The notes below the pieces were generated by a model that saw nothing but the letters and a program-made list of their open reading frames with translations, was not told where the DNA came from and searched no databases. Below are positions 3,762 through 24,789 of a stretch of 27,611 bases of DNA, in pieces. Position numbers and translations under genes: made by a program. The stretch covers positions 9,876 to 37,486 of the forward strand of contig MGIZ01000020.1 in the NCBI GenBank assembly GCA_001794015.1. The letters run 5' to 3'. The stretch comes from Candidatus Yanofskybacteria bacterium RIFCSPHIGHO2_01_FULL_39_8b. GTDB taxonomy: Bacteria; Patescibacteriota; Minisyncoccia; 2-02-FULL-40-12; GWA2-44-9. The first letter of the stretch is position 1; every line of letters begins with the position of its first letter.

Positions 3762-3779
3762 TCCCACATATAGTGCTGG

Positions 3780-3809
3780 TTGACGATCATCTTCAAATTG
3801 ATATAAAAT
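3780..3809 (+). promoter_or_regulatory. Putative sigma70 promoter of gmhA-gmhB
   Basis: TTGACG (3780-3785) followed by TATAAA (3802-3807, 16-nt spacer) or TAAAAT (3804-3809, 18-nt spacer). It lies inside the track's N-terminal extension, which favours the ATG at 3842 as the real start. Confidence 0.4.
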
Positions 3810-3841
3810 CCGCATATAGTCTTTTTAACCACGCTCTGCCT

Positions 3842-4423
3842 ATGAGTATCGTTAAATCAATGCTAGCTTCCGTTGAAACTAAAATTAAACTGTTATCAGA
3901 CAGAGATTTTATAATAGAAATGGAAAAAATCGGCAGTCGGATGATTACATGTCTAAAATTGAGTAAAAAGATCTTAATCGCCGGTAATGGCGGTTCAGCC
4001 GCCGATGCCCAGCATTTTGCCGCAGAACTTGCCGGACAATTCGTTCATAAACGAAAAGGTCTTCCGGTTATAGCCCTAACTACTAACCCGTCAATAATTA
4101 CTGCCATCGGAAATGATTTCGGTTATGAATATGTGTTTTCAAAACAAATAGAAGGTCTCGGCAATCAAGGAGATATATTTGTTGGAATTTCGACAAGCGG
4201 TAATTCTCTTAATTTAATTAATGCCATGGATATCGCTAAAAAACAGGGACTGGTAACAGTGGGCTTTTTGGGTAGGGGTGGCGGACACATGAAGAATTTC
4301 TGCGACTTAAAGCTTATTGTTCCTTCCGATAATACCCAGCATATTCAAGAAGCTCATATTATGATTATCCATGAATTGTGTTCTCTCATCGACAATGCCT
4401 TTAAAAATCATGCCCAAGAATAA
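3842..4423 (+). CDS. gmhA: D-sedoheptulose 7-phosphate isomerase
   Basis: SIS-domain motifs GNGGSAADAQHFAAEL, TAIGNDFGYEYVFSKQ, ISTSGNS, TQHIQEAHIMIIHELC. The start is placed at ATG 3842 (MSIVKS); the track starts at GTG 3773. Confidence 0.93.
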   Translation: MSIVKSMLASVETKIKLLSDRDFIIEMEKIGSRMITCLKLSKKILIAGNGGSAADAQHFAAELAGQFVHKRKGLPVIALTTNPSIITAIGNDFGYEYVFSKQIEGLGNQGDIFVGISTSGNSLNLINAMDIAKKQGLVTVGFLGRGGGHMKNFCDLKLIVPSDNTQHIQEAHIMIIHELCSLIDNAFKNHAQE

Positions 4424-4961
4424 ACCATCCTCCAAATTTATAATCCTAGATCGTGATGGAACAATTATCGAAGATAGGGGCTATATTCACAAAATAAAAG
4501 ATATGAAATTTTTACCGGGAGCAGTGAGAGGACTAAAAAAACTTCAAAATGCCGGATTTAGATTTATAATAATTACTAATCAGGCCGGCCTAGCTAGGGG
4601 CATATATAATCATGCCCAATTCAATATTTTTAATCAGGAGCTAATTAAGCGTCTTGGGACTAAAAATATAAAGATTGAAAAAACATATTACTGCCCCCAT
4701 CATCCCGAATTTACAAGATCGTGTCGATGCCGAAAACCCAAAAAAGGAATGGTTCTTCAAGCAGCCAAAGAATTTGGGTTTAATATTTCCAAATGTGTTT
4801 ATATCGGCGATAAAGATTCGGATATGGAATTGGGTAAAAACTGTAAAGGCATCACTGTTTTAATAGAAAATTCTCAATATCCAAACCGTATTCAGCCAGA
4901 TTATAAAGCCAAAAATCTTTATCATGCATTTAAGGTTTTGGCGAAAACCAGAGTAATCTGA
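4410..4961 (+). CDS. gmhB: D-glycero-D-manno-heptose 1,7-bisphosphate phosphatase (HAD-IIIA)
   Basis: LDRDGTI (DxD), ITNQAG, Zn motif YCPH...CRCRKP, IGDKDSD. The start is placed at ATG 4410, overlapping the end of gmhA by 14 nt. Confidence 0.88.
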   Translation: MPKNKPSSKFIILDRDGTIIEDRGYIHKIKDMKFLPGAVRGLKKLQNAGFRFIIITNQAGLARGIYNHAQFNIFNQELIKRLGTKNIKIEKTYYCPHHPEFTRSCRCRKPKKGMVLQAAKEFGFNISKCVYIGDKDSDMELGKNCKGITVLIENSQYPNRIQPDYKAKNLYHAFKVLAKTRVI

Positions 4962-5001
4962 ACCATAAGAATACTTGGTGTTAAAATTGTTGATAGACCT
5001 A

Positions 5002-5030
5002 TTTGACACTTTTTGACACTTTTTGATACT
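5002..5030 (+). repeat. Three-unit 10-bp tandem repeat (TTTGACACTT, TTTGACACTT, TTTGATACT)
   Basis: Units start at 5002, 5012 and 5022. The first two contain a perfect TTGACA. Confidence 0.85.
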
Positions 5031-5032
5031 AT
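5003..5032 (+). promoter_or_regulatory. Strong sigma70 promoter with extended -10 for the sulfation/amidination operon
   Basis: TTGACA (5003-5008), 18-nt spacer, TACTAT (5027-5032) preceded by TGn (5024-5026). Confidence 0.6.
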
Positions 5033-5112
5033 CAACTTAACTTGATATAAATCTTAACTCCCCCCTGGCGGAGAGTTTAGGGTTAAGAAGTTGCCAATAA
5101 ACTTTTTACCAG

Positions 5113-7827
5113 ATGAAAAACTGTAAAATAATCGTCACCGTCGGACCGGCTACACATAGTCTAGAATCTTTAACCAAGATGAAGGATTTAGACGTCGACT
5201 TCATAAGAGTCAACATGTCTCATTCTTCAATAGATCATCTGAAAGATTTCATATCCTTATCCAAACAGGCAGGCTTACAATTTATAATTGATACCCAAGG
5301 TTCGCAAATCAGAACCAGTAATCTTGCTAGATCATTTATTGAGCTTAAAGAAGGGCAATATATAAAAATTTTTAATAAGCCGAGGCAGGATAAGAGAAGC
5401 GTCCAACTTTCCCTCACGCCCACCGGCATACTAGAACAGTTAGACCCGGGCGATATTGTTCATGTTGATTTTAATAGTCTGATTCTTAGAGTTAGCGATA
5501 CATCCAGCCTCTCAAGAGGCTATATTCTGGCTCAAGCTATAAGTGACGGCAAGGCAGGCAGTAACAAAGCTGTTGTTATTGATCCGGTATTTAAAAAGAA
5601 TTTTAATTTGCCTCCATTTAGTCCTGTTGACTACAAAGCTATCCGGATTGGTCTTGAAGAAAAGATAAACCACATAGCCGTTTCGTTCGTCAGAAAACCG
5701 GAAGATATCGATCTGGCAAGAAAAATTACAAACAATTCCATGAAAATAATATCCAAAATCGAGTGTATCGATGCTATAAAAAATCTTGAACCGATAATTA
5801 AAAAAACCGACTATATCTTAATAGACCGGGGAGATTTAAGCAAAGAGATGCCCCTTGCAGCAATTCCGATGGCCCAAAAATTAATTTTTGAAAAAGCCAA
5901 GAAATATAAAAAGGGGGTCTTTGTTGCAACTAACCTGCTTGAAACAATGGTTAATAATAAGAAACCGACTCGAGCCGAAATGAATGATATTGCAAATACA
6001 ATCTTAGACGGAGCTGCGGGATTGGCTTTGGCCGCTGAAACGGCAATCGGCAAATACCCGATTGAATCAATTATCGCTCTAAAAAAAGTTGTTAACTACA
6101 CCCAGCAGCCCAAGAAAGATTTACTAATCAATAATCCGCAGATCGTTGCACCTCATGGGGGAAAATTGGTGAACCTAATCCCCGATCAATTACCAAACAT
6201 GGAACATATTTCATCATTAAAAAAAATCGGCCTTGATCCTGAACGCCAAATGGATGTAGAACTTATGGGTACTGGCGTTTATAGTCCTCTGGAAGGATTT
6301 ATGGCCAAAAAAGATTTGGATAGCGTTGCTAACCGAATGAAACTTGCCAATGGCACGATCTGGCCATTACCGATAATACTCGACGTTAGCAAAGAAACCG
6401 CTGATAATTTTAAAATTGGCGAAATAATCGCCCTAACTGATGAAAATGATTCGATCATGGCATTACTGCATCTTGCCCAAAAATATCCCTTTGAGAAAAA
6501 AACAGTAATTAAAAAAATATTCGGCACAAACAATATGAGCCACCCCGGCGTTAAGATAATGAGTGGGATGAATGACTATCTCCTTGGAGGCAAAATAGAA
6601 TTATTAAGAAAAAGGGGGTCAGACACAAGAGAATATGAATTAACGCCAAGCCAAGTCAGAAAATTAATTGAAGAAAAGGGATGGTTGAAAGTAATCGGTT
6701 TTCACACTAGAAATGTCATCCATCGCAGTCATGAATTTATTCAGCTAGAGGCATTAAAAAAAGAGTTTGGAGACGGCTTATTCATTCACCCCGTCATTGG
6801 CAAGAAAAAACCGGGAGACTTTAATGCAAAATATATCATCCAATCCTATGAAACGATGATTAAAAATTTCTATCCCAAAGACAAGGTGGTATTTTCTGTT
6901 TTTCCAAGTTACTCCCGCTATGCCGGACCAAGAGAAGCTCTGTTTACTGCAATCTGCCGAAAGAATTACGGCTGTAGCCATTTCATGGTCGGCCGAGATC
7001 ACGCGGGAGTGGGTAACTTTTATAAACCGACCGCCTCGCATGATATTTTTGATAAATTCCCCGACCTTGGGATAAGGCCGATCAAATTTAATCAAGTCTT
7101 TTATTCCCGAAAATTGAAGAGATATATTCATGAAGGGGATATTCCGAACCATGATGAAAAAGATAAATTTTATATTAGCGGCACCCAGGCAAGAAAAATG
7201 TTTTTAAACGGCAAAAGACCTCCGGATTGGTTTATGCGGCCGGAAATATCTAACTCAATCGCCGCCGCCATAAAGAGGGGCGAGGAAATTTTCGTTAAAG
7301 AAAAACTCCCGGGGAAAATAATCTGGTTTACCGGTTTAAGCGGTTCTGGAAAAAGTACAATTGCGAATAGACTCTCGGAAAAACTTACTGAATTAGGGAA
7401 AAAAGTTTATATTATTGATGGCGATAACATACGAAAAAATATCAGCAAGGATCTCGGATTTGGTCGCGAAGATATACAAGAAAATAATAGAAGAATAGCA
7501 GAATTAGCCAAACAGAAAATAAAAGAATTTGACTTTATTCTAATTCCGATAATATCGCCCTATAGAGAAGACCGCCAAATGGCTAAGTCAATAATCGGCG
7601 ATCAAAAATTTATTGAATTATATGTAAATGCCCCCTTCAACGTTTGCGAAAAAAGAGATGTTAAAGGCTTATATAAAAAATATAAAGATGGCCAATTGGC
7701 ATTACTAATAGGAGCAGCCCAGCAAAACCCCTACGAACCACCGCTAAAGCCGGATATTGAAATTAAAACGTATAAAAATTCAATTAATAAATCTACTAAT
7801 AAAATATTGAGATGGTTAATAAAATAA
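5113..7827 (+). CDS. pyk-sat-cysC: Triple fusion, 904 aa: pyruvate kinase (A+B domains, no C domain) + ATP sulfurylase (Sat type) + APS kinase (CysC)
   Basis: PK part (about aa 1-330): TVGPA, RVNMSH, DTQGSQIRT, KIE, DRGDL, VATNLLETM, PTRAE..D.AN...DG, ETAIGKYP. Sat part (from about 6145): APHGGKLVNL, YSPLEGFM, WPLPI.LDV, HPGV, FHTRNVIHRSH, RYAGPREA, GRDHAGVG, ISGT..R. CysC part (from about 7309): WFTGLSGSGKST, DGD.IR, ISPY...R, RDVKGLY. It is one uninterrupted ORF. Confidence 0.93.
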   Translation: MKNCKIIVTVGPATHSLESLTKMKDLDVDFIRVNMSHSSIDHLKDFISLSKQAGLQFIIDTQGSQIRTSNLARSFIELKEGQYIKIFNKPRQDKRSVQLSLTPTGILEQLDPGDIVHVDFNSLILRVSDTSSLSRGYILAQAISDGKAGSNKAVVIDPVFKKNFNLPPFSPVDYKAIRIGLEEKINHIAVSFVRKPEDIDLARKITNNSMKIISKIECIDAIKNLEPIIKKTDYILIDRGDLSKEMPLAAIPMAQKLIFEKAKKYKKGVFVATNLLETMVNNKKPTRAEMNDIANTILDGAAGLALAAETAIGKYPIESIIALKKVVNYTQQPKKDLLINNPQIVAPHGGKLVNLIPDQLPNMEHISSLKKIGLDPERQMDVELMGTGVYSPLEGFMAKKDLDSVANRMKLANGTIWPLPIILDVSKETADNFKIGEIIALTDENDSIMALLHLAQKYPFEKKTVIKKIFGTNNMSHPGVKIMSGMNDYLLGGKIELLRKRGSDTREYELTPSQVRKLIEEKGWLKVIGFHTRNVIHRSHEFIQLEALKKEFGDGLFIHPVIGKKKPGDFNAKYIIQSYETMIKNFYPKDKVVFSVFPSYSRYAGPREALFTAICRKNYGCSHFMVGRDHAGVGNFYKPTASHDIFDKFPDLGIRPIKFNQVFYSRKLKRYIHEGDIPNHDEKDKFYISGTQARKMFLNGKRPPDWFMRPEISNSIAAAIKRGEEIFVKEKLPGKIIWFTGLSGSGKSTIANRLSEKLTELGKKVYIIDGDNIRKNISKDLGFGREDIQENNRRIAELAKQKIKEFDFILIPIISPYREDRQMAKSIIGDQKFIELYVNAPFNVCEKRDVKGLYKKYKDGQLALLIGAAQQNPYEPPLKPDIEIKTYKNSINKSTNKILRWLIK

Positions 7828-8765
7828 AAATTGGCACACGTGTTCCTCTGGTTAAAAACCTCTTGATTGTCGAGGGTATTACGCGCGCCGGTAAATTTTT
7901 ATTGGCCAACCTCATTCACGGATTTAAAGACATTGAGCCCATTCAATATTATGGCCTGCCTGAAAATCTTCCTTTTCTTGAAAAATTTGGATTTATAAAC
8001 AGAAGAGCGGCCAAAGAGATATTACAATGCCAGATTGATACACATTGCTATGAAATGCTAATCGGAAGAAATTTTAATCACCGTAAATTCGATAAGTCAT
8101 CAATATATAACAACCCTAGATATAAAGAATTTTTAACCCGTAGCAATGAGCCTGATAGAGAAAAATTGCTTGCAGCGTTTTATAAAAATAATAGTTATAG
8201 CTTTTTTATAATGCATGAGCTAATGCCTCATATTAAAATTTATCTTGATACCTTTTCCGATATAAAGATAGTCAGCATCCAGAGAAGCCCTATTGAACTG
8301 GTCCATTCTTGGTATAAGTGCGGACTAGGAAAAAGATGGGGCAATGACCCAACGTGGTTTCAGATAGCATTAGGAGATAATCAGGGCCCCATTCCCTGGT
8401 ATGCTCATGATTGGACGCACGATTATAGGACACTACCGGAGATAGATAGAGTTATACACTCGATACAAACTCTAGATTATTTATATAAAAAATCATTTAG
8501 TAGGCTATCTTCCCGAGATAAAAACAAAATACTTTTTGTTAGATATGAAAAAATACTTTCATCTCCCCTAAAAGTTATAGATTCAATCAAAAAATTCTTA
8601 AATAAAAATACCCTGCCGGAAATTGGAAAAATCTTAAAGAAAGAAAAGTTGCCTGTAAAAAATTATGGGGCCCAGATATTAAATAAAATTAAAATAATAA
8701 AAAAAATGGCATCTGAAAAATATTTCAAGATTTTAATGGACCTAGAAAATGAATACAACCTTTAA
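7812..8765 (+). CDS. Putative PAPS-dependent sulfotransferase
   Basis: 5'-PSB-like loop IVEGITRAGKFLL, 3'-PB-like motif IQRSPIELVHSW, and C-terminal FVRYEKILSSP..VI..I.KFL. It overlaps the PAPS-synthetase gene by 16 nt. Confidence 0.7.
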   Translation: MVNKIKIGTRVPLVKNLLIVEGITRAGKFLLANLIHGFKDIEPIQYYGLPENLPFLEKFGFINRRAAKEILQCQIDTHCYEMLIGRNFNHRKFDKSSIYNNPRYKEFLTRSNEPDREKLLAAFYKNNSYSFFIMHELMPHIKIYLDTFSDIKIVSIQRSPIELVHSWYKCGLGKRWGNDPTWFQIALGDNQGPIPWYAHDWTHDYRTLPEIDRVIHSIQTLDYLYKKSFSRLSSRDKNKILFVRYEKILSSPLKVIDSIKKFLNKNTLPEIGKILKKEKLPVKNYGAQILNKIKIIKKMASEKYFKILMDLENEYNL

Positions 8766-9516
8766 AAAAATAAGGATAATCCCTAGACTGGATGTAAAAG
8801 GCTCCAACGTAATAAAGGGCGTCCACCTTGAATGTCTTAAAATTGTTGGTAACCCCCAAGATATGGCGACCAGATATTATAATGAAGGGGCCGATGAAAT
8901 AATTTGTATGGACATTGTGGCCAGCCTATATGGACGTAAAAATTTACTTAACATTATTTCTGAAGCTGCTAAAAATATTTTTATTCCTTTAACGGCTGGC
9001 GGCGGTATCAAATCTATTAAAGACATCAAGAATATTCTCCGGGCCGGAGCCGATAAAGTGGCCATAAATACTTATGCCGTTAAAAATCCGGACTTTATTC
9101 CTAAAGCCGCTAAAGCATTTGGCAGCCAATGTATAGTAGGATCAATTGAGGCTAAACTAATCGAACCCGGCAAATGGGAGGCATTTACTGATAATGGCCG
9201 TGAAAAAACCGGCCTAGACGTGATAAAATGGGCTCAAAGGTTAGAAAAATTAGGCGCAGGAGAATTATTAATAACGTCCGTAGACAAAGAAGGCACCACC
9301 AAAGGTTACGACTTAGAACTTATGAATAAAATTACTCAAGCAGTAAAAATACCGATTATTGCTTGTGGCGGGGCCGGCAGTCCTAAAGATTTTTACAATA
9401 CCGCCACCCTGGGAATAGATGCCATTGCCGCATCCCACGTATTCCATTACCAAAAGCACAATGTTAAAGAAATAAAAAAATATTTAAAAAATAAAAAAAT
9501 CAATGTCCGCACCTAA
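8749..9516 (+). CDS. hisF: HisF-like cyclase subunit of the glycan-locus type (WbuZ-like; ammonia channel of an amidotransferase)
   Basis: RIIPRLDVKG..VIKG, GADE...DI.ASL, PLTAGGGI, GADKVAINT, GAGELLITSVDKEGT..GYD, PIIACGGAG. The position equivalent to the second HisF catalytic Asp reads SIE. Confidence 0.88.
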   Translation: MNTTFKKIRIIPRLDVKGSNVIKGVHLECLKIVGNPQDMATRYYNEGADEIICMDIVASLYGRKNLLNIISEAAKNIFIPLTAGGGIKSIKDIKNILRAGADKVAINTYAVKNPDFIPKAAKAFGSQCIVGSIEAKLIEPGKWEAFTDNGREKTGLDVIKWAQRLEKLGAGELLITSVDKEGTTKGYDLELMNKITQAVKIPIIACGGAGSPKDFYNTATLGIDAIAASHVFHYQKHNVKEIKKYLKNKKINVRT

Positions 9517-10156
9517 AATTATAATAATTGACTACGGATTCGGAAATTTATTCAGTCTAACTAATGCTTTTAGATTTCTTGGAATCGAGCCAATCGTTAC
9601 CAGCAGTATCTCAAATATCAAAACAGCTGATGCGCTTGTTTTGCCGGGAGTCGGTGCTTTCGACGATGGGATGATGGGACTAAAAAAGAAAAATCTGGTT
9701 AAGCCAATTCTAGACTTTGCCGATTCAGAAAAAAATCTGCTAGGCATATGCTTGGGAATGCAGTTTCTTTTTGACTATAGCGAAGAGTTTGGAAAGCATG
9801 AGGGTTTAAGCTTAATTTCTGGAGCTGTAAAAAGAATACCCGATCCGAAACAAAATAAAAACTACAAAATTCCCAATATTGGCTGGTCAGAATTGAATAA
9901 ATCAAAGCATTTGAAAAGTTGGAAAAACACTGTATTATCATCAAGTAAAGAGGGGGTAGAAATGTATTTTGTCCATTCTTATGTCGCTTTACCAGAAAAC
10001 AAGAAAAACATCTTGGCATCAATAAATTATGGAAGCAATATTATAACAGCGGTGGTACAAAAAAATAACATAACCGGCCTTCAATTCCACCCTGAAAAAA
10101 GCGGTCCCGAGGGCTTAAAAATATTAAAACAATGGGTAATTCAGATTTCCACATAA
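9503..10156 (+). CDS. hisH: HisH-like class I glutamine amidotransferase (WbuY-like glutaminase)
   Basis: IIDYG.GNL.S, LPGVGAF, catalytic GICLGMQ, YFVHSY, and QFHPEKSG (Cys-His-Glu triad intact). Confidence 0.9.
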   Translation: MSAPKIIIIDYGFGNLFSLTNAFRFLGIEPIVTSSISNIKTADALVLPGVGAFDDGMMGLKKKNLVKPILDFADSEKNLLGICLGMQFLFDYSEEFGKHEGLSLISGAVKRIPDPKQNKNYKIPNIGWSELNKSKHLKSWKNTVLSSSKEGVEMYFVHSYVALPENKKNILASINYGSNIITAVVQKNNITGLQFHPEKSGPEGLKILKQWVIQIST

Positions 10157-10824
10157 AAAAAGATAAAAATTTTAAACCGAAAGAATTATTTAAAGATATG
10201 GCTGCAATTATACAAAAACGTTTTAAAAATACGGGGGATTTTAGCATTCTCGACATCGGCTGCGCTTCCGGCGAATTACCATTTTATTTAAAAAATAGGT
10301 TTAAAACTGACGATGTGTATGGTTTTGATATTTCTCCTAAATTAATCAAAAACGCCAAAGAACGTTTCGGCGGCTCTAAAATTAATTTTACAGTCGCCAA
10401 CGCGAAAAATTTTAAATTCAACAGGAAATTTGATGTAATAACCGCCGCATCCATCCTCAGCTATTTTGATAATCCTTACGAAATTTTAAATAACATTTTC
10501 AAACATCTAAACAAAAAGGGCCTGATAATAATAACCGGCATTTTCAATGACTGGAATTTAGATGTCAAACTTAAATACAAAATGGATAAAGATAAAAAAT
10601 GGGGAGACAAATCTGTTATAAACCAGTTTTCAACAAAAAGAATAGGCGATTATCTGACAAAAAAGGGATACAAGTATAAATTTTCAGAGCAAATAATGCC
10701 GTTTAAAATCGTCCCCCACAAAGATCACCCGATTAGATCATGGACGATAAACTTAAATGGGAAAAGATTTATGATGAGCGGGCTGCAGTTAGCTTATAAT
10801 ATTAAAATTCTTCAAATATGGTAA
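10132..10824 (+). CDS. Class I SAM-dependent methyltransferase
   Basis: SAM motif ILDIGCASGE, YGFDIS...I..A, FDVITA..ILSY. It overlaps both neighbouring genes. Confidence 0.85.
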   Translation: MGNSDFHIKKDKNFKPKELFKDMAAIIQKRFKNTGDFSILDIGCASGELPFYLKNRFKTDDVYGFDISPKLIKNAKERFGGSKINFTVANAKNFKFNRKFDVITAASILSYFDNPYEILNNIFKHLNKKGLIIITGIFNDWNLDVKLKYKMDKDKKWGDKSVINQFSTKRIGDYLTKKGYKYKFSEQIMPFKIVPHKDHPIRSWTINLNGKRFMMSGLQLAYNIKILQIW

Positions 10825-12002
10825 AGACTCTAGACAAACAACTTGCACAGCTCCCAAAAGAAGTTATTTTCTGTAAAAAATGTGTTGTCTCAAACCAGCG
10901 ACCAAGAACAGAATTTGATGCCGAAGGCATATGCAATGCCTGCCGTTATGTTGAAGAAAAAAACACAAAAATTGATTGGGCCAAGAGAGAAAAAGAGTTA
11001 ATTAAACTTCTGAACAAGCATCGCTCCCAAGATGGCAGTTATGACGTTGTTGTCCCATCTAGCGGAGGAAAAGACAGCGGCATCGTGGCTCACCAACTGA
11101 AAACCAAATACGGTATGCACCCTTTAACTGTAACTTGGGCGCCGTTTTTATACACCGACATTGGGTGGAAAAATTATTTAAATTTTAAAGATTCTGGTTT
11201 TGATAATGTTTTATTTTACCCCAATGGTAAAATATACAGAAAGCTGGCCAGAATTGCTTTTGAATTAAAGGGTGATGCCTGGGAACCGTTCGGCTGGGGA
11301 CAAAAATGTTACCCTTTTCATATTGCCGTCAGATTTAAAATTCCTTTAATTTTCTACGGAGAAAACGGCGAAGTAGAATATGGCGGATCTATGCAAAATA
11401 AGAATAAGTCCCATGAATCACCCAGAGATTGGGAAAAGTTATATTACAAAGGATCTGGAGTAGATGCGCTTGTTAAAGAGGGCTTAAAGATGGGAATCCT
11501 GACGAAAGAGGACCTTAAAGAAAGTAATTTCTCCATATTTAAATCTCCTCCATTTGCCCAAATAGAAAAACTTGGGACAGAGATGCATTGGTGGTCCTAT
11601 TATCACAAATGGATTCCCCAGGAAAATTATTATTATTCGGCAGAGCACACCGGATTTGAAGCTAACCCCGAAGGAAGATCTGAAGGCACATATTCAAAGT
11701 ATGCCAGCCTTGATGATAAAACCGACGGGTTCCATTGGTATCTGGGCTATATCAAATTCGGCCTCGGAAGAGCTTCCCGTGACGCTCAAATGGAAATCCG
11801 GAGCGGACATATTACACGTGAAGAAGCTATTTCTTTAGTAAAAAGATATGATGGAGAATTTCCAAAACAGTATTTTAAAGAATTCCTTCAATATCTTGGC
11901 ATAACTGAAAAGCATTTCTGGGAAGTAATCGAAAGGTACAGAAGTCCCCACCTCTGGAAAAAAGTTAATGGAAGGTGGCAATTAAAATTTAAAGTAAAAT
12001 GA
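10818..12002 (+). CDS. N-acetyl sugar amidotransferase (WbuX/PseA/PtmG family; acetamidino synthase)
   Basis: N-terminal CKKC...RP...FD..G.CNAC, PP-loop YDVVVPSSGGKDS, HPLTVTW, YGENGEVEYG, TYSKYASLDDK, KFG.GRA..DA..EIR.G.ITREEA. Confidence 0.9.
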   Translation: MVKTLDKQLAQLPKEVIFCKKCVVSNQRPRTEFDAEGICNACRYVEEKNTKIDWAKREKELIKLLNKHRSQDGSYDVVVPSSGGKDSGIVAHQLKTKYGMHPLTVTWAPFLYTDIGWKNYLNFKDSGFDNVLFYPNGKIYRKLARIAFELKGDAWEPFGWGQKCYPFHIAVRFKIPLIFYGENGEVEYGGSMQNKNKSHESPRDWEKLYYKGSGVDALVKEGLKMGILTKEDLKESNFSIFKSPPFAQIEKLGTEMHWWSYYHKWIPQENYYYSAEHTGFEANPEGRSEGTYSKYASLDDKTDGFHWYLGYIKFGLGRASRDAQMEIRSGHITREEAISLVKRYDGEFPKQYFKEFLQYLGITEKHFWEVIERYRSPHLWKKVNGRWQLKFKVK

Positions 12003-12727
12003 AAAAACAAAAACCGATAATCCTCGCTTACATACCCGCTCGCGGAGGATCAAAAAGAATCCCTGGGAAAAATTTCAAAAAATTCGTAAATAAACCTCTG
12101 ATCGCCCATGCTGTTGAACAAGCGCTTTCATGGCCACATACCGACCGGCTGATCGTTGATACGGATTCACCCAAAATAGCAAAAATAGCAAAAAAATATG
12201 GAGCCGAAGTCCCCTTTTTGAGACCGGCCGAATTAGCCCAAGACAAATCCATGGCAATTGATACAATCTTATACACCCTGAATCGCCTCGAGAAAGAACA
12301 AAATTACAAACCTACCCACCTGTTAATGCTGCAAGCCACATCTCCCCTACGTGAGCTTAAAGACATAGATGCCTGTTGGAAAATGATGAAAGAAACAGAT
12401 GCCACTACGGTTTTAACCGTTTGCTCAACTCATCCCCGCCTTTACCACATGAACGATAAAAATGACATTATTCTAGTAAATGGCCATGAAGGAATGTCAA
12501 CAAATATGCAGGCTTGGTCTCCGGCATATCTGCTAAACGGCTGTTTTGTTTATATAATAGATATTGCAACTTTGAAGAAAGAAAGGCGAGTGATAACTAC
12601 CAAAACTAAAGCTGTTGTCTGTCCAAAATGGCGATCGATTGACTTAGATACTCCCGAAGAATGGGTGATGGCAGAAATTTTATATAGAAATAAAAAGAAA
12701 TTAGAAAAAGAAATTAAATCAATTTAA
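11999..12727 (+). CDS. neuA: CMP-nonulosonic acid synthetase (acylneuraminate cytidylyltransferase)
   Basis: IPARGGSKRIPGKN, KPLIA, VDTDS, AEVPFLRP.ELA.D, LQATSP, SIDLDT.EEW..AE. Confidence 0.93.
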   Translation: MKKQKPIILAYIPARGGSKRIPGKNFKKFVNKPLIAHAVEQALSWPHTDRLIVDTDSPKIAKIAKKYGAEVPFLRPAELAQDKSMAIDTILYTLNRLEKEQNYKPTHLLMLQATSPLRELKDIDACWKMMKETDATTVLTVCSTHPRLYHMNDKNDIILVNGHEGMSTNMQAWSPAYLLNGCFVYIIDIATLKKERRVITTKTKAVVCPKWRSIDLDTPEEWVMAEILYRNKKKLEKEIKSI

Positions 12728-12740
12728 TTTAAACAAATTA

Positions 12741-12775
12741 TTGACATCAGATGTCTTTTAGACATCAGATGTCAA
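12741..12775. repeat. Double palindrome: two copies of GACATC-A-GATGTC nested in a 35-bp inverted repeat
   Basis: Copies lie at 12743-12755 and 12761-12773. The whole element TTGACATCAGATGTCT-TTT-AGACATCAGATGTCAA pairs at 15 of 16 positions. Confidence 0.9.
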
Positions 12776-12782
12776 AGAATTA

Positions 12783-13826
12783 ATGCTAAAGTCTAAACTT
12801 AAATTTTTAGTTATCGGATTAGGTTCAATGGGACGAAGAAGAATCAGAAATCTTCTGGCCAATAAAATAAAAAGAGGGAACATCTTTGGCTTTGATATTT
12901 GGAAAGAGCGAGCCGAAAATGTCGGGAAAGAATATGGTATTAAAGTAACCGAAAGTTTTAAAAGGGCAATTGCAGATTTCAACCCTGATGTTTTTATAGT
13001 CTCCACTCCACCCAATGCCCACGATAAATATTTCCTTTGGGCTTTGAAGAATAACAAGCATTTCTTTGTTGAACATCCCACGACAGACAAAGGCTATAAT
13101 CAGCTTCTAAATTCTAAATTAAAAATTCTAAATTCTAAATTCGGTATTGTGGGTGTCCCTTCAAACAGCTGGAGGTTTAACCCGTCCATCAAGAAAATAA
13201 AAGAGCTTATTGAACAAAACTCTATCGGCAAAGTACTGGCTTTTCAATACCATATGGGCCAATATCTGCCCGATTGGCATCCTTGGGAAGATTCCAAAAA
13301 GGTTTATTTTTCCAAAAAAGAAACTGGTGCTTGCCGAGAAATGTTTGCTTTTGAGCTGGGCTGGCTAACTTTTGCATTAGGGTTAAGCGAAATAAAAAAT
13401 ATCTCCGGCGTAACAAAAAAACTATCCGATCTGGATATGGATGCAGATGACTTTTATTCTGCAATTTTAAATTTCGAGAATGGAATCAGTGCGACAACGA
13501 TCATAGATCTTCTGTCCAAAAAACCGATGCGAACTTTAAGAGTAGTCGGTACAAAAGGAGTTCTTGAGTGGGAGTGGCTTGATTACACGATAAAAATCCA
13601 CAAATCAAGAACTGATTCTCAATTGATCCAGCTAAACAAGGGCCGAAGCGAGAAACATTATGTTTCTACCGAGGATATGTATGAAGAAGAAATCGGTCTC
13701 TTTATAAATGCCCTAGAGGGCAAGAAACCTTTTCCTTTTACTTTCAAAGAAAATCGACATTTCTTGAAGGCTTTATTTGCCCTTGAAAAAAGCAGTAAAA
13801 CCGGAAAAGTAATACCCATAAAATGA
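12783..13826 (+). CDS. Gfo/Idh/MocA family oxidoreductase (PtmF-like)
   Basis: Rossmann motif LVIGLGSMGRRR, FIVSTPP..H, FFVEHP, GQYLPDWHPWED, HELDW-like FELGWL. Confidence 0.85.
   Translation: MLKSKLKFLVIGLGSMGRRRIRNLLANKIKRGNIFGFDIWKERAENVGKEYGIKVTESFKRAIADFNPDVFIVSTPPNAHDKYFLWALKNNKHFFVEHPTTDKGYNQLLNSKLKILNSKFGIVGVPSNSWRFNPSIKKIKELIEQNSIGKVLAFQYHMGQYLPDWHPWEDSKKVYFSKKETGACREMFAFELGWLTFALGLSEIKNISGVTKKLSDLDMDADDFYSAILNFENGISATTIIDLLSKKPMRTLRVVGTKGVLEWEWLDYTIKIHKSRTDSQLIQLNKGRSEKHYVSTEDMYEEEIGLFINALEGKKPFPFTFKENRHFLKALFALEKSSKTGKVIPIK
13105..13142 (+). repeat. In-frame heptamer tandem repeat (TTCTAAA)2-TTAAAAA-(TTCTAAA)2-TTC inside the oxidoreductase
   Basis: Units start at 13105, 13112, 13119, 13126, 13133 and 13140, encoding LLNSKLKILNSKF. 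Confidence 0.85.
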
Positions 13827-14938: not shown

Positions 14939-16084
14939 ATGAAAAAAAGAAAAATCGCTTATATATCTGGCACAAGGGCGGATTTCGGCATAATGAAATC
15001 TATTCTTAAATCAGTAGATGTCAGCCCCAAACTTGAATTGCAAATGTATGTCACTGGGATTCATTTAACGCCCGGCTTTGGTTCGACAGTAAATGAAGTT
15101 AAGAAAATTTTCCCGGGCACCAAATCCATAGAGGCTAAATTTAACAATGATGGCTTCTCTGGCGTTGCAAGATTCACTGGAAACTTTCTAACAAAGTTAA
15201 CCGAGACTTTCATTAAAAATAGACCTGATTTTGTTTTGGTCCTCGGTGATCGATCAGAAGAATTATGCGTAGCTATGGCTTGCTTATATCTTGGAATTCC
15301 AACCGGACATTTTAGGGGTGGGGAAAGAACATCTGCGTTTGATGAAATTGCCCGTCATGCGATAACGAAAATGTGTAGTCTGCATTTTGCCTCTACTCAA
15401 GAATCAGCAAACAGAATTGAAAAAATGGGAGAAGATAGGTGGAGAATTCATGTCGTCGGAGAAGCATCGTTGGATATCATTCTCAATCAGAAATTACCGA
15501 CAAGAAAAGAACTCTTCGTCAAACTAGGGTTCCCTTCACCGTCTCAATTCATCCTCCTTATTCAACATTCTGTAAGCTACGAACTTGATAGAACTAAAAA
15601 ACAAATCAAAGAGACATTGGCAGCCCTAAAATATCTTGAATTACCAATAATCGTTATTTATCCTAATGCCGATGCCGGCGGAAGAAAAATAGTTAAAGAA
15701 ATAGAAAGAGAGAGGGGGAATCCGCTTTTTCATATTTATCAAAACCTGCCCTATGAATATTTTCTTGCCCTTGAAAGGGAAGCCGATGTTTGGGTTGGCA
15801 ATTCCAGCGGAGCAATGGTTGAATCATCATCGTTCGGCACACCAGTAGTTAATATTGGCACCCGCCAGAAGAACAGACAAAGAGGCGAGAATGTAATTGA
15901 CGTTGATTATAAAAAAAATGAGATTATATCAACTGTCAAAAAATCATTGAACCCTGCCTATATTGCCCGCCTAAAAACCCTGAAAAACCCATGGGGAGAT
16001 GGTAAGACCGGCCCAAGAGTAGCTAAAATTTTAGAAAATCTAACCATTAATTCACAATTGCTAAATAAGCAAATATCTTATTAA
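14939..16084 (+). CDS. neuC: Hydrolysing UDP/GDP-sugar 2-epimerase (NeuC/LegG type)
   Basis: SGTRADFG, VTG.HL...FG.T, LVLGDR.E, GGE.T...DE..RHAITK, YPNADAG, VGNSSG, EssSFG.PVVNIG.RQ.NR, PWGDG. Confidence 0.93.
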   Translation: MKKRKIAYISGTRADFGIMKSILKSVDVSPKLELQMYVTGIHLTPGFGSTVNEVKKIFPGTKSIEAKFNNDGFSGVARFTGNFLTKLTETFIKNRPDFVLVLGDRSEELCVAMACLYLGIPTGHFRGGERTSAFDEIARHAITKMCSLHFASTQESANRIEKMGEDRWRIHVVGEASLDIILNQKLPTRKELFVKLGFPSPSQFILLIQHSVSYELDRTKKQIKETLAALKYLELPIIVIYPNADAGGRKIVKEIERERGNPLFHIYQNLPYEYFLALEREADVWVGNSSGAMVESSSFGTPVVNIGTRQKNRQRGENVIDVDYKKNEIISTVKKSLNPAYIARLKTLKNPWGDGKTGPRVAKILENLTINSQLLNKQISY

Positions 16085-16210: not shown

Positions 16211-16996
16211 ATGATCAAAAAAGTAATACTCTTGGGGAGAAAAAAGGGCGCCGCACAAGCCCTAAAATGGCTGGTAGATAATAAAATCAACGTTCCTTTT
16301 GTCGTGGCCGACCAGAATGAAAACAAACCTGAATGCCTAGGCGTTACCGCAAAAAAGTTAGCAATACCAACCTATTTTGACGATCAAGTTATATATAAGA
16401 TGATAGAGAATAGAGATAAAAGTCTGGAGAACATTGATCTAATTATTTCATATCTCCATCCTAGAAAAATAAAAGAGCCCCTTTTTAAACTTGGCGGGCT
16501 GGGCTGCATAAACTTCCACCCCGCTCCCCTGCCTGAATATAAAAGCCGAGCCGGATATAATACCGCCATTCTTGACCAAAAAGATAACTTTGGTGTCAGT
16601 GCTCATTTTATCAATTCTGAAAAATTTGATTCCGGACCAATAATTCAAGTTCTTAGATTTCCAATTGACCCCTTAACAGAAACCGTATTAGCTCTCGAAA
16701 AAAAATCCGGAGAAAAACTTTTTGAGCTTTTTATAGAAATAATGAAACTTTTTATGGAAGGCCGGCTGATTGAAACAAAGGAAAACCATGGTGGACTTTA
16801 TCTTACAGCAAAAGATTTAGAAAATTTAAAGATAGTTAATCCGGACAAAGATTCAGCTGAAGACATAGACAGAAAAATAAGAGCATTTTTCTTCCCGCCT
16901 CATCATGGAGCAAAAATAATCCTGGCTGGAAAAGAATATACCTTGCTCAATAAAGAAATGTTGGAATATTTAGCCACCCTTATTAATAAAACATGA
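16211..16996 (+). CDS. N10-formyl-THF-dependent formyltransferase, probably a sugar N-formyltransferase
   Basis: DLIISY, catalytic INFHPAPLPEY (Asn, His), GVSAHF, FDSGPII (Asp), and IRAFFFPP in the C-terminal part. It overlaps the aminotransferase start (ATGA). Confidence 0.85.
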   Translation: MIKKVILLGRKKGAAQALKWLVDNKINVPFVVADQNENKPECLGVTAKKLAIPTYFDDQVIYKMIENRDKSLENIDLIISYLHPRKIKEPLFKLGGLGCINFHPAPLPEYKSRAGYNTAILDQKDNFGVSAHFINSEKFDSGPIIQVLRFPIDPLTETVLALEKKSGEKLFELFIEIMKLFMEGRLIETKENHGGLYLTAKDLENLKIVNPDKDSAEDIDRKIRAFFFPPHHGAKIILAGKEYTLLNKEMLEYLATLINKT

Positions 16997-18120
16997 ATAA
17001 ATATCCAATCGCTAAACCATATATAACTAAAGGAGAAAAACAAGCAGTGCTTGATGTTTTAAATTCTGGGAACTTGAGTCTGGGACCATTGCATAAAGAA
17101 TTTGAGAGAAAATTTGCAGAAAAAATAGGCACAAGGTATGCCTGTTCAGTTTCAAGCGGAACCGCCGGTCTGCATTTAGCTATGATTGCGGCTGGGATAC
17201 AATCAGGGGACGAAGTCATTACGTCCCCTTTTTCTTTTATAGCCTCGGCAAATTGTATTCTATATGTCGGAGCCAAGCCAGTTTTTGTTGATATAGATCC
17301 CATTACATACAATATGGATCCTGGGAAAATCGAGCAGGCTATAAATAAAAAAACTAAAGCGATATTGGTGGTTCATATCTTCGGGCAATCAGCTGACATG
17401 AGTCCAATAAAAAAGATAGCCAAGAAATATAACTTAAAAATAATAGAGGATGTCTGTGAATCTATATGCGCCAAATATAGAGGAAAAACCGTAGGAACTT
17501 TCGGGGAATCAGCCGTATTCGCATTTTATCCAAATAAACAAATGACTACAGCCGAAGGCGGGATGCTGGTTACCGATAAAAAATCCATATACAAAGTGGT
17601 TAACAGTCTAAGAAACCAAGGCCGATCCGATAATATGCAGTGGCTTGATCATCAAAGACTTGGTTATAATTATAGGATGAATGAGGTAAGCGCCGCTCTT
17701 GGATTGGCCCAGTTATCCAAACTGGATTACATGATTGCCGAAAGAAAAAAAATAGCCTTACTTTATAATAAATATTTAGAAGAATATGACTCTCTGGTTC
17801 AAGTTCCTCAAATACATGAATTAAATGACCATACTTGGTTCGTATATGTAGCAAAAATTAAAAATATAAAATCCGAATCTCAGCGAAATAAAATAATTTT
17901 AGCCATGGAAAAGAAAAATATTGCCACAAAACCCTATCTTCCCGCAATCCATCTTTTTAGTTTTTACAAAAATAAATTCGGATATAAAACAGGCGATTTT
18001 CCTATTACTGAAGAAATCAGTCGATCTTCTATAGCTCTCCCTTTCTATGTAGGGTTGAAAGAAAAAGATATTAAATATATAGTGGAAAAGCTGGTAAATA
18101 CTATAAAAAGTTATGTCTAA
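16993..18120 (+). CDS. DegT/DnrJ/EryC1/StrS PLP-dependent sugar aminotransferase
   Basis: SSGTAGLHLA, EVITSPFSFIASAN, PVFVDID, IIED, FAFYPNKQMTTAEGG (PLP lysine), GYNYRMNEVSAALG, LPFY. Confidence 0.93.
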   Translation: MNKYPIAKPYITKGEKQAVLDVLNSGNLSLGPLHKEFERKFAEKIGTRYACSVSSGTAGLHLAMIAAGIQSGDEVITSPFSFIASANCILYVGAKPVFVDIDPITYNMDPGKIEQAINKKTKAILVVHIFGQSADMSPIKKIAKKYNLKIIEDVCESICAKYRGKTVGTFGESAVFAFYPNKQMTTAEGGMLVTDKKSIYKVVNSLRNQGRSDNMQWLDHQRLGYNYRMNEVSAALGLAQLSKLDYMIAERKKIALLYNKYLEEYDSLVQVPQIHELNDHTWFVYVAKIKNIKSESQRNKIILAMEKKNIATKPYLPAIHLFSFYKNKFGYKTGDFPITEEISRSSIALPFYVGLKEKDIKYIVEKLVNTIKSYV

Positions 18121-19108
18121 TTTTTTTAAAAATAAAACCATATTGGTCACCGGCGGCACCGGTTCTATAGGCTCCAAAATAGTGAGGCAGGCTTTAGCCT
18201 ATCAACCTCGCCAAATTAGAATCTTGTCTCGCAACGACAGTAAACAATATCATTTTCTGGAGAAACTTGACCATCCTAAAAATATCAGAATGCTTATAGG
18301 CGATATAAGAGATTCTAAGCGCCTTGATTTAGCCTTTGAAAATGTAGATATTGTCTTTCATGCCGCAGCCCTAAAACACGTCCCTCTTTGTGAATATAAT
18401 CCGCTTGAAACTATTAAAACTAATGTTTTCGGCTCCCAAAATGTGATAGATGCTGCCTTCAAAAATAATGTGAAGAAGGTCATAGCCATATCTACCGATA
18501 AAGCAGCTAACCCGGGCAATGTTATGGGTTTATCGAAATTAATGATGGAAAAGCTTTTGACGAACACCAGCTATTTTTCCAAAGATAAAACTAAATTTTC
18601 CTGTGTCAGGTTTGGGAACGTCGCCTGGTCGGAAGCATCGGTTCTGCCGCTATGGAAAAAACAAGCCGATAAAAACGGACAAATTAATCTCACCGATAAA
18701 AACGCAACCAGATTTTTCATGTCCATAGACCAGGCAGTTAAGTTGGTGCTTAAAGCAGCCGAATTGACCCAGGGCGGTGAAGTTTTTATTCTTAAAATGC
18801 CGTCAATTAAAATGGCGGATATGGCAAAAATATTTTTAAGCAAGCACTTTGGCGGCAGAAAAGTAAAAATTAAATTAATAGATAACAGAATCGGCGATAA
18901 AACTCATGAAGAGTTATTCGATTTTAATGACAACCAGAAATTGATCCTTGAGGATGATAAAATGTTTATAATTATCCCAAAAGAAAAAACCCACTACTAT
19001 TCATTCCAGCCCAGATTGTCTTTCTATAAAAATTTTTCACAGACCGATAAAAAAACCTTCTCGTCTCGAGACAGTATTGATAACGAAGCCGTCAGCTCAT
19101 TGGTTTAA
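18113..19108 (+). CDS. Nucleotide-sugar (UDP-GlcNAc-type) 4,6-dehydratase, Polysacc_synt_2 / PglF-CapE-PseB superfamily
   Basis: LVTGGTGSIG, IGDIRD, FHAAALKHVP.CEYNP.E..KTN..G, STDKA, NVMGLSK, VRFGNV, TRFFM, GGEVFILKM. Confidence 0.9.
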   Translation: MSNFFKNKTILVTGGTGSIGSKIVRQALAYQPRQIRILSRNDSKQYHFLEKLDHPKNIRMLIGDIRDSKRLDLAFENVDIVFHAAALKHVPLCEYNPLETIKTNVFGSQNVIDAAFKNNVKKVIAISTDKAANPGNVMGLSKLMMEKLLTNTSYFSKDKTKFSCVRFGNVAWSEASVLPLWKKQADKNGQINLTDKNATRFFMSIDQAVKLVLKAAELTQGGEVFILKMPSIKMADMAKIFLSKHFGGRKVKIKLIDNRIGDKTHEELFDFNDNQKLILEDDKMFIIIPKEKTHYYSFQPRLSFYKNFSQTDKKTFSSRDSIDNEAVSSLV

Positions 19109-24759: not shown

Positions 24760-24789
24760 AAAAAAACGTAAAGGCGCCGAGTGGCGCCT
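24760..24789 (-). terminator. GC-rich hairpin at the stop of the GT-B gene; possible weak terminator or processing site
   Basis: AGGCGCC (24772-24778) and GGCGCCT (24783-24789) with a 4-nt loop. On the minus strand it is followed by TTACG and then T7. Confidence 0.35.

Follow-up and report, generated by a model that had tools for sequence, protein, structure and literature searches.

A putative nonulosonate O-sulfotransferase family and a pyruvate kinase-fused PAPS synthase in a surface glycan locus of Candidatus Yanofskybacteria

On many microbial surfaces, the outermost sugars are nonulosonic acids (NulOs), which carry charge; their known decorations in prokaryotes are acyl, amidino, methyl, glyceroyl and similar groups. 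Dedicated supply of 3'-phosphoadenosine-5'-phosphosulfate (PAPS) beside a carbohydrate sulfotransferase is exemplified by NodPQ/NodH of Sinorhizobium. A comparable arrangement has been described in the capsule locus of Cobetia marina, a polysaccharide cluster with embedded genes for PAPS synthesis and a sulfotransferase (PMC11766843). Tailoring of legionaminic acid (Leg) to the acetamidino and N-methyl-acetimidoyl forms has been described for PtmG (Cj1324)/PtmH (Cj1325) of Campylobacter jejuni and ORF 28/ORF 8 of Legionella pneumophila, with PtmG working at the level of the CMP-sugar (PMC3766260). Sulfation of a NulO itself is documented only for vertebrates and echinoderms, in the form of the PAPS-dependent O-sulfation of Neu5Ac and Neu5Gc (PMC9304399). 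Here, we analyze a stretch of 27,611 nucleotides from Candidatus Yanofskybacteria bacterium RIFCSPHIGHO2_01_FULL_39_8b (contig MGIZ01000020.1, positions 9,876 to 37,486; hereinafter the window) that contains a chain of seven overlapping genes (5113-12727), in which a 904-aa PAPS synthase fusion and a 317-aa sulfotransferase precede the genes for NulO amidination and activation. Our most far-reaching interpretation, to which we assign a probability of roughly 0.5, is that the 317-aa protein would represent a widespread family of NulO (or CMP-NulO) O-sulfotransferases, that sulfated sugars of the Leg or pseudaminic acid (Pse) type would be present on members of the candidate phyla radiation (CPR), DPANN and several other phyla, and that a PAPS synthase fusion driven by phosphoenolpyruvate (PEP) would travel with the sulfotransferase as a mobile cassette.

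Similarly to the Cobetia capsule and NodPQ/NodH systems, PAPS genes in this locus lie beside a predicted carbohydrate sulfotransferase in a glycan context, with sulfate apparently destined for decoration rather than for assimilation. In contrast to both, the window encodes a single fusion of pyruvate kinase (PK), PUA, ATP sulfurylase (ATPS) and adenosine-5'-phosphosulfate (APS) kinase (APSK) domains instead of CysDN/CysC (NodPQ), contains neither cysQ nor a sulfate permease gene in the locus, employs a sulfotransferase of a different, unnamed family, and appears to be translationally coupled to genes for NulO tailoring and activation rather than for polymer assembly. With PtmG/PtmH and ORF 28/ORF 8, the locus shares a WbuX/PseA-type amidotransferase and an adjacent methyltransferase in a Leg-type NulO setting, with a predicted product of the Leg5AmNMe type, whereas the HisH/HisF partners encoded in the same operon and the PAPS synthesis and sulfotransferase genes ahead of them set it apart, no sulfation having been described in those systems. 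The likeness to the sialic acid O-sulfation of vertebrates and echinoderms lies in the predicted PAPS-dependent sulfation of a NulO, but those systems are eukaryotic whereas the window is prokaryotic. Glycan loci with their own PAPS genes and sulfotransferases, as well as acetamidino and N-methyl tailoring of legionaminic acid, are thus already known; the present locus differs in that its PAPS synthase is fused to PK, in its sulfotransferase family, which has no name, and in the systematic embedding of this family in NulO operons.

The sulfotransferase and the PAPS synthase fusion

The seven genes of the chain, all on the + strand, are the following:

5113-7827, + strand: 904-aa PAPS synthase fusion with a PK A/B barrel (residues 1-320), PUA_2 (346-499), ATP sulfurylase (507-717) and APS kinase (734-885)
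7812-8765, + strand: 317-aa soluble sulfotransferase (by profile, fold and motifs) of an unnamed family seated in nonulosonate loci
8749-9516, + strand: HisF/WbuZ-like cyclase-type subunit, predicted ammonia-channelling partner of the amidotransferase (PF00977, E = 1.8e-67; TIGR03572 (WbuZ), 278.9 bits, just under the cut-off of 299.7)
9503-10156, + strand: HisH/WbuY-like glutaminase subunit (TIGR01855, 199.9 bits, cut-off 105.4)
10132-10824, + strand: class I S-adenosylmethionine-dependent methyltransferase (Methyltransf_31/25/11, E about 1e-16 to 1e-18)
10818-12002, + strand: WbuX/PseA/PtmG-type N-acetyl sugar amidotransferase, acetamido to acetamidino (TIGR03573, 354.1 bits, cut-off 203.2)
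11999-12727, + strand: CMP-nonulosonate synthetase of the NeuA/PseF/LegF family (PF02348 (CTP_transf_3), E = 5.6e-23; TIGR03584, 159.5 bits, under the cut-off of 205.7)

The successive overlaps of 16, 17, 14, 25, 7 and 4 nt, originally reported together with the gene coordinates in a sequence-only reading of this DNA, match the listing of open reading frames (ORFs) exactly, and the gene identities that this reading assigned, from the sulfotransferase through NeuA, hold in profile searches. The designation of 5113-7827 as a PAPS synthetase is borne out by both synthase domains; what had gone unmentioned is the N-terminal pyruvate kinase barrel.

A hidden Markov model search of the 7812-8765 product against sulfotransferase families, proposed along with the sequence-only reading, places residues 85-270 in PF00685 (Sulfotransfer_1) with 28.6 bits, above the curated threshold of 22. 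No match to PF13469 (Sulfotransfer_3) is detected at E 0.01 in this protein or elsewhere in its own genome, and no NCBIfam model matches it; PF13469 is the precomputed annotation of many of its homologs. The AlphaFold2 model, built from a 32-sequence alignment, has a predicted local distance difference test (pLDDT) score of 93.5, and the best 50 Foldseek matches listed are all sulfotransferases or the sulfotransferase-fold retinol dehydratase, with CurM sulfotransferase (ST; 4gbm, E = 1.5e-7) and OLS ST (4gox, E = 1.8e-6) as the best matches; the TM-scores to the class of CurM ST, OLS ST and the tyrosylprotein sulfotransferases (TPSTs) are only 0.4-0.47, and the sequence identity is ~12%. In a second look by structural alignment, the Z-scores are 16-17 for TPSTs (best 16.9 over 234 residues), 15.0 for CurM ST, 14.0 for OLS ST, 13.2 for Stf9 and ~12 (12.2) for heparan 3-OSTs; TPST1/2 and tick TPST align with Z of 16.0-16.9 and a root-mean-square deviation of 3.1-3.6 A over 223-234 residues. 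The nearest solved folds (Z 14-17), those of TPST1/2 (5wri, 3ap1-3, 8w5z), CurM ST and OLS ST, share with the window protein an Arg-containing 5'-phosphosulfate-binding (5'-PSB) loop and the 3'-phosphate-binding (3'-PB) motif, whereas the window protein is a stand-alone soluble form that has a His as the putative base and is encoded in a sugar-nucleotide genomic context.

The 5'-phosphosulfate loop, G22-x2-R25-x-G27-K28, follows the strand 17-22; the 3'-phosphate motif, R158-x-P160...S166/W167, follows the strand 152-157; and the candidate catalytic base, H135, is located at the end of the strand 129-135, in the same position as in SULT enzymes. Each of G22, R25, G27, K28, H135, R158, P160 and W167 is conserved in at least 94% of 137 representatives with a median identity of 29%; for S166, conservation of at least 90% applies to the 32-sequence alignment only. 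In a profile search of PDB, the R158-S-P...S166-W-Y stretch aligns with the 3'-PB motif of SULT1C3. The modelled fold, together with the intact PAPS-binding motifs, supports the assignment of the 317-aa protein as a PAPS-dependent sulfotransferase, and, going by sequence and fold, it has the features of a protein that binds PAPS, the property on which the sequence-only reading depended. Outside the PAPS motifs, a second patch (Y80, G85, R86, N89, R91, D94, R110) is near-invariant across the family and is as conserved as the PAPS site; we read it as the likely acceptor side of the active site.

A search of 1.84 billion representatives assigns 481 clusters to the family (E <= 1e-30), and its members are labelled, if at all, "hypothetical protein" or "sulfotransferase domain-containing protein". 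One member, P0310 (L049:3898-5358), is a natural 486-aa fusion of APS kinase with the sulfotransferase and adjoins genes for HisH, HisF, an epimerase and an ATP-grasp protein. Together with the 16-nt overlap between the sulfotransferase and PAPS synthase genes in the window, this fusion lends indirect support to the predicted transfer of the sulfo group from PAPS. A search for longer fused forms of the family (556-2000 aa) that might name the acceptor found none, which is weak evidence.

In the 904-aa fusion, all four domains are recognized by Pfam models (E = 4.7e-65 for the PK barrel, 2.5e-45 for PUA_2, 6.5e-78 for ATP sulfurylase and 3.2e-51 for APS kinase), and the scores of the ATP sulfurylase (TIGR00339, 360.7 bits, cut-off 322.95) and APS kinase (TIGR00455, 191.6 bits, cut-off 138.7) models are both above the cut-offs; the whole-protein model NF004040 gives 466.9 bits, under its cut-off of 669. 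The best relative in PDB is the bifunctional sulfate adenylyltransferase/APS kinase of Aquifex aeolicus (2gks, E = 1.5e-113), which aligns end to end with residues 363-903, whereas the window protein additionally contains the N-terminal PK A/B barrel, without the C-terminal regulatory domain of PK. The barrel (window positions 5113-6072) matches PF00224 along its full length (positions 1-328) and retains the PK motifs RxNxSH, DTxG, SKIE, RGDL and PTRAE; the PK_C domain was not found in the fusion, and TIGR01064 scores 263.6 bits, under the cut-off of 306.4. Regeneration of ATP by PEP and pyruvate kinase is a trick used in vitro for PAPS synthesis. From the domain composition, we infer that the fusion is a PAPS synthase with a built-in, PEP-driven ATP regenerator, and it would be the natural counterpart of this trick.

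The source genome is assembled to 0.71 Mb in 64 contigs and is 78% complete, and the barrel of the fusion is the sole pyruvate kinase domain in this assembly. Among 40 relatives, most have no pyruvate kinase and only 2 encode any ATP sulfurylase; therefore, the PK domain appears to have come with the sulfate module rather than to be a housekeeping enzyme. Fusions of the PK-ATPS(-APSK) type are common in CPR and DPANN, where the database names are merely "sulfate adenylyltransferase" or "pyruvate kinase", and our literature search found no description of a fusion between PK and ATP sulfurylase.

PAPS_reduct (PF01507), NIR_SIR (PF01077) and PALP (PF00291) have no match either in the window or in the assembled genome, so that the lack of APS/PAPS reductase, sulfite reductase and cysteine synthase, initially noticed in the window, extends to the whole assembly (78% complete), which also contains no second sulfotransferase. 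Therefore, the PAPS produced here appears to be intended for sulfation, and the earlier suggestion that it is dedicated to this purpose gains support from the genome-wide absence of assimilation genes. We consider it very likely that both the PAPS and the sulfotransferase are used for the glycan made by this locus.

Association of the family with nonulosonate genes across phyla

A scan of one genome per GTDB species yielded 28 loci of the sulfotransferase family (denoted with the prefix L), which come from Patescibacteria, records labelled Gammaproteobacteria, Gemmatimonadota, Elusimicrobiota, Omnitrophota, Bacteriovoracaceae, Woesearchaeota and Micrarchaeota. NeuB, NeuA or WbuX is encoded no more than 10 kb from the sulfotransferase in 24 of the 28 loci (tblastn with the window proteins), and in one more (L022), NeuB lies 10.3 kb away on the same contig, so that the link is seen in 25 loci within ~10.5 kb; two of the three remaining loci are contigs of ~4 kb, too short to judge. 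The comparison of gene neighborhoods, on which the sequence-only reading had staked its case, shows that homologous operons generally retain the link between the sulfotransferase and the NulO genes. A remote metagenomic member of the family, P0275, likewise has NeuB, NeuC and an APS kinase as neighbors.

Clustering of full-length ORFs from the 28 loci and the window (L018, L021 and L026 were assessed by tblastn only, not by ORF calls) gave counts of 26 for the sulfotransferase, 21 for the PseB-like short-chain dehydrogenase/reductase (SDR; a cluster named from the window gene 18113-19108), 19 for PK-ATPS, 18 each for WbuX and NeuB, and 16 for NeuA. Other recurrent families include DegT, HisF, HisH, GFO, NeuC, stand-alone APS kinases, ATP-grasp proteins, GT4 glycosyltransferases and Capsule_synth. 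PK-ATPS adjoins the sulfotransferase in about 20 loci, and the order PK-ATPS > sulfotransferase > HisF > HisH > WbuX > NeuA > GFO > NeuB > NeuC is found in L003, L005 and L006, with small variations in L002, L012 and L016.

In L001, the gene for a small membrane protein of the PQ-loop (SemiSWEET-like) type (9675-9995) separates the APS kinase gene from that of the sulfotransferase; its counterparts adjoin PK-ATPS in L007 and immediately precede the sulfotransferase in L020. The window encodes no such protein; by its position, it may be a transporter linked to the sulfation module.

Proposed pathway and the acceptor of the sulfo group

Downstream of the chain, the window encodes the following components of a NulO pathway:

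12783-13826, + strand: Gfo/Idh/MocA oxidoreductase, which follows NeuA in the conserved CPR operon and is kept in L002-L006, L012 and L016
13823-14878, + strand: NeuB-type nonulosonate synthase (TIGR03569, 445.3 bits, cut-off 399.65)
14939-16084, + strand: NeuC/LegG-type hydrolysing UDP-sugar 2-epimerase (TIGR03568, 379.2 bits, cut-off 235.9)
16211-16996, + strand: formyltransferase-like acylase in the slot of the LegH/PseH N-acetyltransferase
16993-18120, + strand: DegT-type aminotransferase, predicted early step to 2,4-diamino-2,4,6-trideoxyhexose
18113-19108, + strand: PseB-like 4,6-dehydratase, predicted early step to the same hexose

The dehydratase scores 297.9 bits with the PseB model versus 78.4 with LegB, and the aminotransferase 336 bits with PseC versus 289.7 with LegC, all under the respective cut-offs. 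Judging by these profiles, the downstream genes would encode a 5,7-diamino-tetradeoxy-nonulosonate pathway with a mixed Leg/Pse signature. The window contains no hexapeptide or GNAT acetyltransferase, and this slot is taken by the formyltransferase-like gene, as is also the case in L003 and L016; this suggests that the nonulosonate is formylated at 7-N. The WbuX-family synthetase has adjacent HisH- and HisF-like subunits, the arrangement that defines the amidotransferase system; the HisF gene is the only one of the HisA/HisF family in the genome and, therefore, is not part of histidine synthesis. By its position, the methyltransferase, which has a counterpart in the equivalent slot of L001, is a candidate for the PtmH-like N-methylation of the acetimidoyl group.

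We propose that a self-contained sulfation module has been inserted at the start of an operon that tailors and activates the NulO. The 904-aa fusion, given its domains, would make PAPS from sulfate via ATP sulfurylase and APS kinase, whereas the PK barrel would use PEP to convert the ADP of the kinase step back to ATP. The 317-aa sulfotransferase, as its fold and motifs suggest, would then move the sulfo group from PAPS to a hydroxyl of the presumed acceptor, 5,7-diamino-tetradeoxy-nonulosonate, most likely at the stage of the free or CMP-activated sugar. Subsequently, in the order that appears most plausible for these enzyme families, WbuX with HisH/HisF would turn the 5-N-acetyl group into acetimidoyl, the methyltransferase would N-methylate the latter, and NeuA would make the CMP-sugar to be passed on to a surface glycoconjugate. 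As the product, we predict a NulO that is sulfated, N-methyl-acetimidoylated and probably 7-N-formylated and that would combine a carboxylate, an amidinium and a sulfate group. A 5,7-diamino-3,5,7,9-tetradeoxy NulO of the Leg/Pse type leaves just O4 and O8 available. In each of the loci examined, a separate acylating enzyme (formyltransferase, ATP-grasp or GNAT) is encoded for the 7-N position, which makes N-sulfation of N7 less likely and favors O-sulfation. A PAPS-like donor of a group other than sulfate was also considered and dropped, given that no phosphoramidate gene set is present here and that the sulfotransferase gene overlaps that of the PAPS synthase.

That the NulO or CMP-NulO is the acceptor of the sulfotransferase seems to us somewhat better than an even bet, because the neighbors that stay constant across phyla are NulO enzymes while glycosyltransferases vary, because the putative acceptor patch matches the PAPS site in conservation, because the gene sits among those for soluble sugar-nucleotide enzymes rather than transferases, and because PtmG provides a precedent for tailoring at the CMP-sugar level (PMC3766260). 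Such features would suit an acceptor that is small, conserved and anionic. Several points weigh against this interpretation. The acceptor is not fixed by computation, and the synteny fits sulfation of another sugar of the same glycan equally well; among the closest relatives by structure, TPST modifies proteins and CurM ST employs sulfate as a leaving group, so that neither works on sugars; and our literature search found no sulfated prokaryotic NulO, sulfated Leg/Pse sugar or sulfotransferase in a NulO cluster. Furthermore, several loci (L004, L007, L026) lack the three amidotransferase genes, indicating that sulfation is not tied to amidination; the sole real exception to the synteny, L025, encodes the sulfotransferase and PK-ATPS, with no NeuB found in its 2.5-Mb metagenome-assembled genome (MAG); and neither a SulP sulfate transporter nor a CysQ or DHH-type phosphatase for 3'-phosphoadenosine-5'-phosphate (PAP) was found in the incomplete genome. 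Given the lack of such a phosphatase, the GmhB-like HAD-IIIA phosphatase encoded at 4371-4961 can be considered a speculative candidate for the removal of PAP.

The most serious competing explanation, which we nevertheless regard as unlikely, is that the sulfate goes on a different residue of the same surface glycan, such as a hexose, heptose or N-acetylhexosamine of a lipid-linked oligosaccharide, in which case the position in the operon would reflect only the shared end product. The contig indeed consists almost entirely of glycan genes and includes several further sugar pathways (GmhA/GmhB-like proteins, epimerases, aminotransferases, radical SAM enzymes and a PhyH dioxygenase), L025 combines the sulfotransferase with PK-ATPS in a MAG where NeuB is not found, and the known bacterial precedent, that of Cobetia, is a polysaccharide sulfotransferase in a capsule locus with PAPS genes (PMC11766843). 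However, across the phyla, it is the NulO genes that are constant, whereas the glycosyltransferases and the other sugar pathways are variable, and near-invariance of the non-PAPS patch at a median identity of 29% would be unexpected for diverse glycan acceptors; the sulfotransferase, moreover, is soluble and its gene is located between those for sugar-nucleotide enzymes. The sulfur assimilation scenario, in which the PAPS synthase has this or another housekeeping role in APS/PAPS metabolism and the glycan neighborhood is incidental, is the least credible of those considered and can be all but set aside: ATP sulfurylase and APS kinase are the classical assimilation enzymes and the genome is incomplete, but it yielded no match for PAPS/APS reductase, sulfite reductase or cysteine synthase, ATP sulfurylase is present in none of six congeners and in only 2 of the 40 relatives, and the synthase gene overlaps that of the sulfotransferase by 16 nt, a pair that is syntenic in about 20 loci.

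The structural matches raise two additional scenarios, both involving sulfation of a kind other than stable decoration of a NulO. Transient sulfation, where the ester would serve as the leaving group in an elimination or substitution step of NulO tailoring, as in the case of CurM ST and OLS ST, leaving the final sugar without sulfate, is suggested by these two enzymes being the top Foldseek matches (Z of 15.0 and 14.0, respectively). We find it improbable given that TPSTs score at least equally well (Z 16-17), that the identity to CurM ST is only ~12%, that the gene neighborhoods show no recurrent partner that would make use of the sulfate ester, and that a dedicated, costly PAPS synthase better suits stoichiometric decoration. 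By the same token, TPST1/2 and tick TPST as the top matches in the structural alignment and the Arg in the 5'-PSB loop, as in TPST, might point to a tyrosine sulfotransferase of the TPST/RaxST type acting on a surface protein that is also glycosylated by the products of this locus. TPST2 uses Glu as the catalytic base, whereas the candidate base here is a His in the SULT position (H135); the identity is again ~12%, and no gene for a substrate peptide or protein recurs in the loci, whereas sugar-nucleotide genes do, which renders tyrosine sulfation very improbable. Thus, O-sulfation of the NulO or CMP-NulO is the reading that we prefer.

Accessory cassette, transcription context and the surface glycan

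The sulfation genes are preceded in the window by two further genes and by a promoter-like region:

3773-4423, + strand: GmhA-like SIS isomerase (TIGR00441, 199 bits, cut-off 209)
4371-4961, + strand: GmhB-like HAD-IIIA phosphatase (NF006506, 153 bits, cut-off 178)
5000-5052, + strand: promoter-like region with three tandem TTTTTGA(C/T)AC repeats, TTGACA at 5003, and TTGATA-17 nt-TATAAA with an upstream TG at 5023-5051 (consensus matches only)

NeuB is present in all six congeners, none of which has the sulfotransferase or ATP sulfurylase. In the four of the six congeners whose syntenic loci were fetched (G004, G006, G001, G002), the block 3773-8765 is missing, and the locus order is B12-rSAM ... 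GT2-like ... HisF HisH WbuX ... NeuB, with MptE-like and GT4 genes downstream; NeuA and NeuC are also kept in G004 and G006, and the order is fullest in G004 (NeuA, GFO, NeuB, NeuC ... DegT, PseB, GFO2, GFO3, MptE, GT4). HisF directly follows the GT2-like gene in G006, and other genes occupy that slot in G004. Because the congeners keep the locus without it, the block 3773-8765 is an accessory cassette that fills a variable tailoring slot; an even sampling of 400 genomes from the phylum turned up no other occurrence of the sulfotransferase family. A pair of SIS and HAD genes also accompanies the sulfotransferase in the Gemmatimonadota loci L010, L013 and L015, and no heptose kinase or nucleotidyltransferase is seen near the GmhA/GmhB-like pair. 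This pair makes up the first half of the cassette and might have a role in sulfation.

The overlaps of HisF, HisH, WbuX and NeuA are unavoidable because these genes have no other in-frame start among the first 30 codons; the sulfotransferase start at 7812 is consistent with the N-termini of 31 homologs, and the 25-nt overlap of the methyltransferase is the only one that might be shorter (ATG at codon 22). Given that the genes overlap or are at most 1 nt apart at 13 of the 20 + strand junctions in the interval 2688-23492, overlap is the style of the whole locus and, therefore, indicates co-translation, not a special link. The claim of a single promoter ahead of the chain stands only in part: the 151-nt gap upstream of 5113, the only sizeable intergenic gap that precedes the chain, does contain promoter-like hexamers, but the promoter/terminator scan detected no enrichment of such sites in this region (56 found versus 46 +/- 7.5 in shuffled sequences), so that the case for one promoter comes down to the single gap. 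The triple TTTTTGA(C/T)AC repeat (5000-5029) could represent overlapping -35 boxes or a regulator site. In the 55-nt gap between NeuA and the oxidoreductase, there is a palindrome (12741-12775) that is atypical of a terminator because it lacks a T-run; the sequence upstream of 12783 reads GACATCAGATGTC. The locus sequence is present in nine DNA runs from groundwater and soil metagenomes (2015-2016, six studies), with no RNA run listed.

Glycan tailoring fills nearly all of the 40.9-kb contig. The 10 kb upstream of the window (contig positions 1-9875) continue the glycan locus: the proteins encoded there include three epimerase/dehydratases, one further DegT aminotransferase, a PhyH dioxygenase, an SDR and two additional radical SAM proteins, one of them B12-binding. 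The Glyphos_transf protein encoded at 24788-25831 on the - strand shows a weak match (43.5 bits, cut-off 200) to the BFO_1060 family, the transferase family for Pse/Leg derivatives in Tannerella forsythia (PMC5420450), and an MptE-like/DUF115 protein encoded at 21028-21921 on the + strand is kept in the congeners; both are candidate nonulosonate transferases. A second NeuB-NeuC-NeuA set is located on contig C9 of the same genome (L046:3845-6754), so the organism may make two different nonulosonates.

A sulfotransferase family that is tied to NulO operons and comes with its own PAPS supply would provide a concrete route to sulfated NulOs, and its members are candidate enzymes for the chemoenzymatic sulfation of sialic acid analogs. 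In this ultra-small, episymbiotic groundwater bacterium, the ~40 kb devoted to one glycan amount to roughly 5% of a genome of ~0.9 Mb, as estimated from the assembly size and completeness. This investment and the swapping of cassettes at one slot among the closest relatives suggest that surface charge is under strong diversifying selection, possibly in connection with host attachment or phage evasion.

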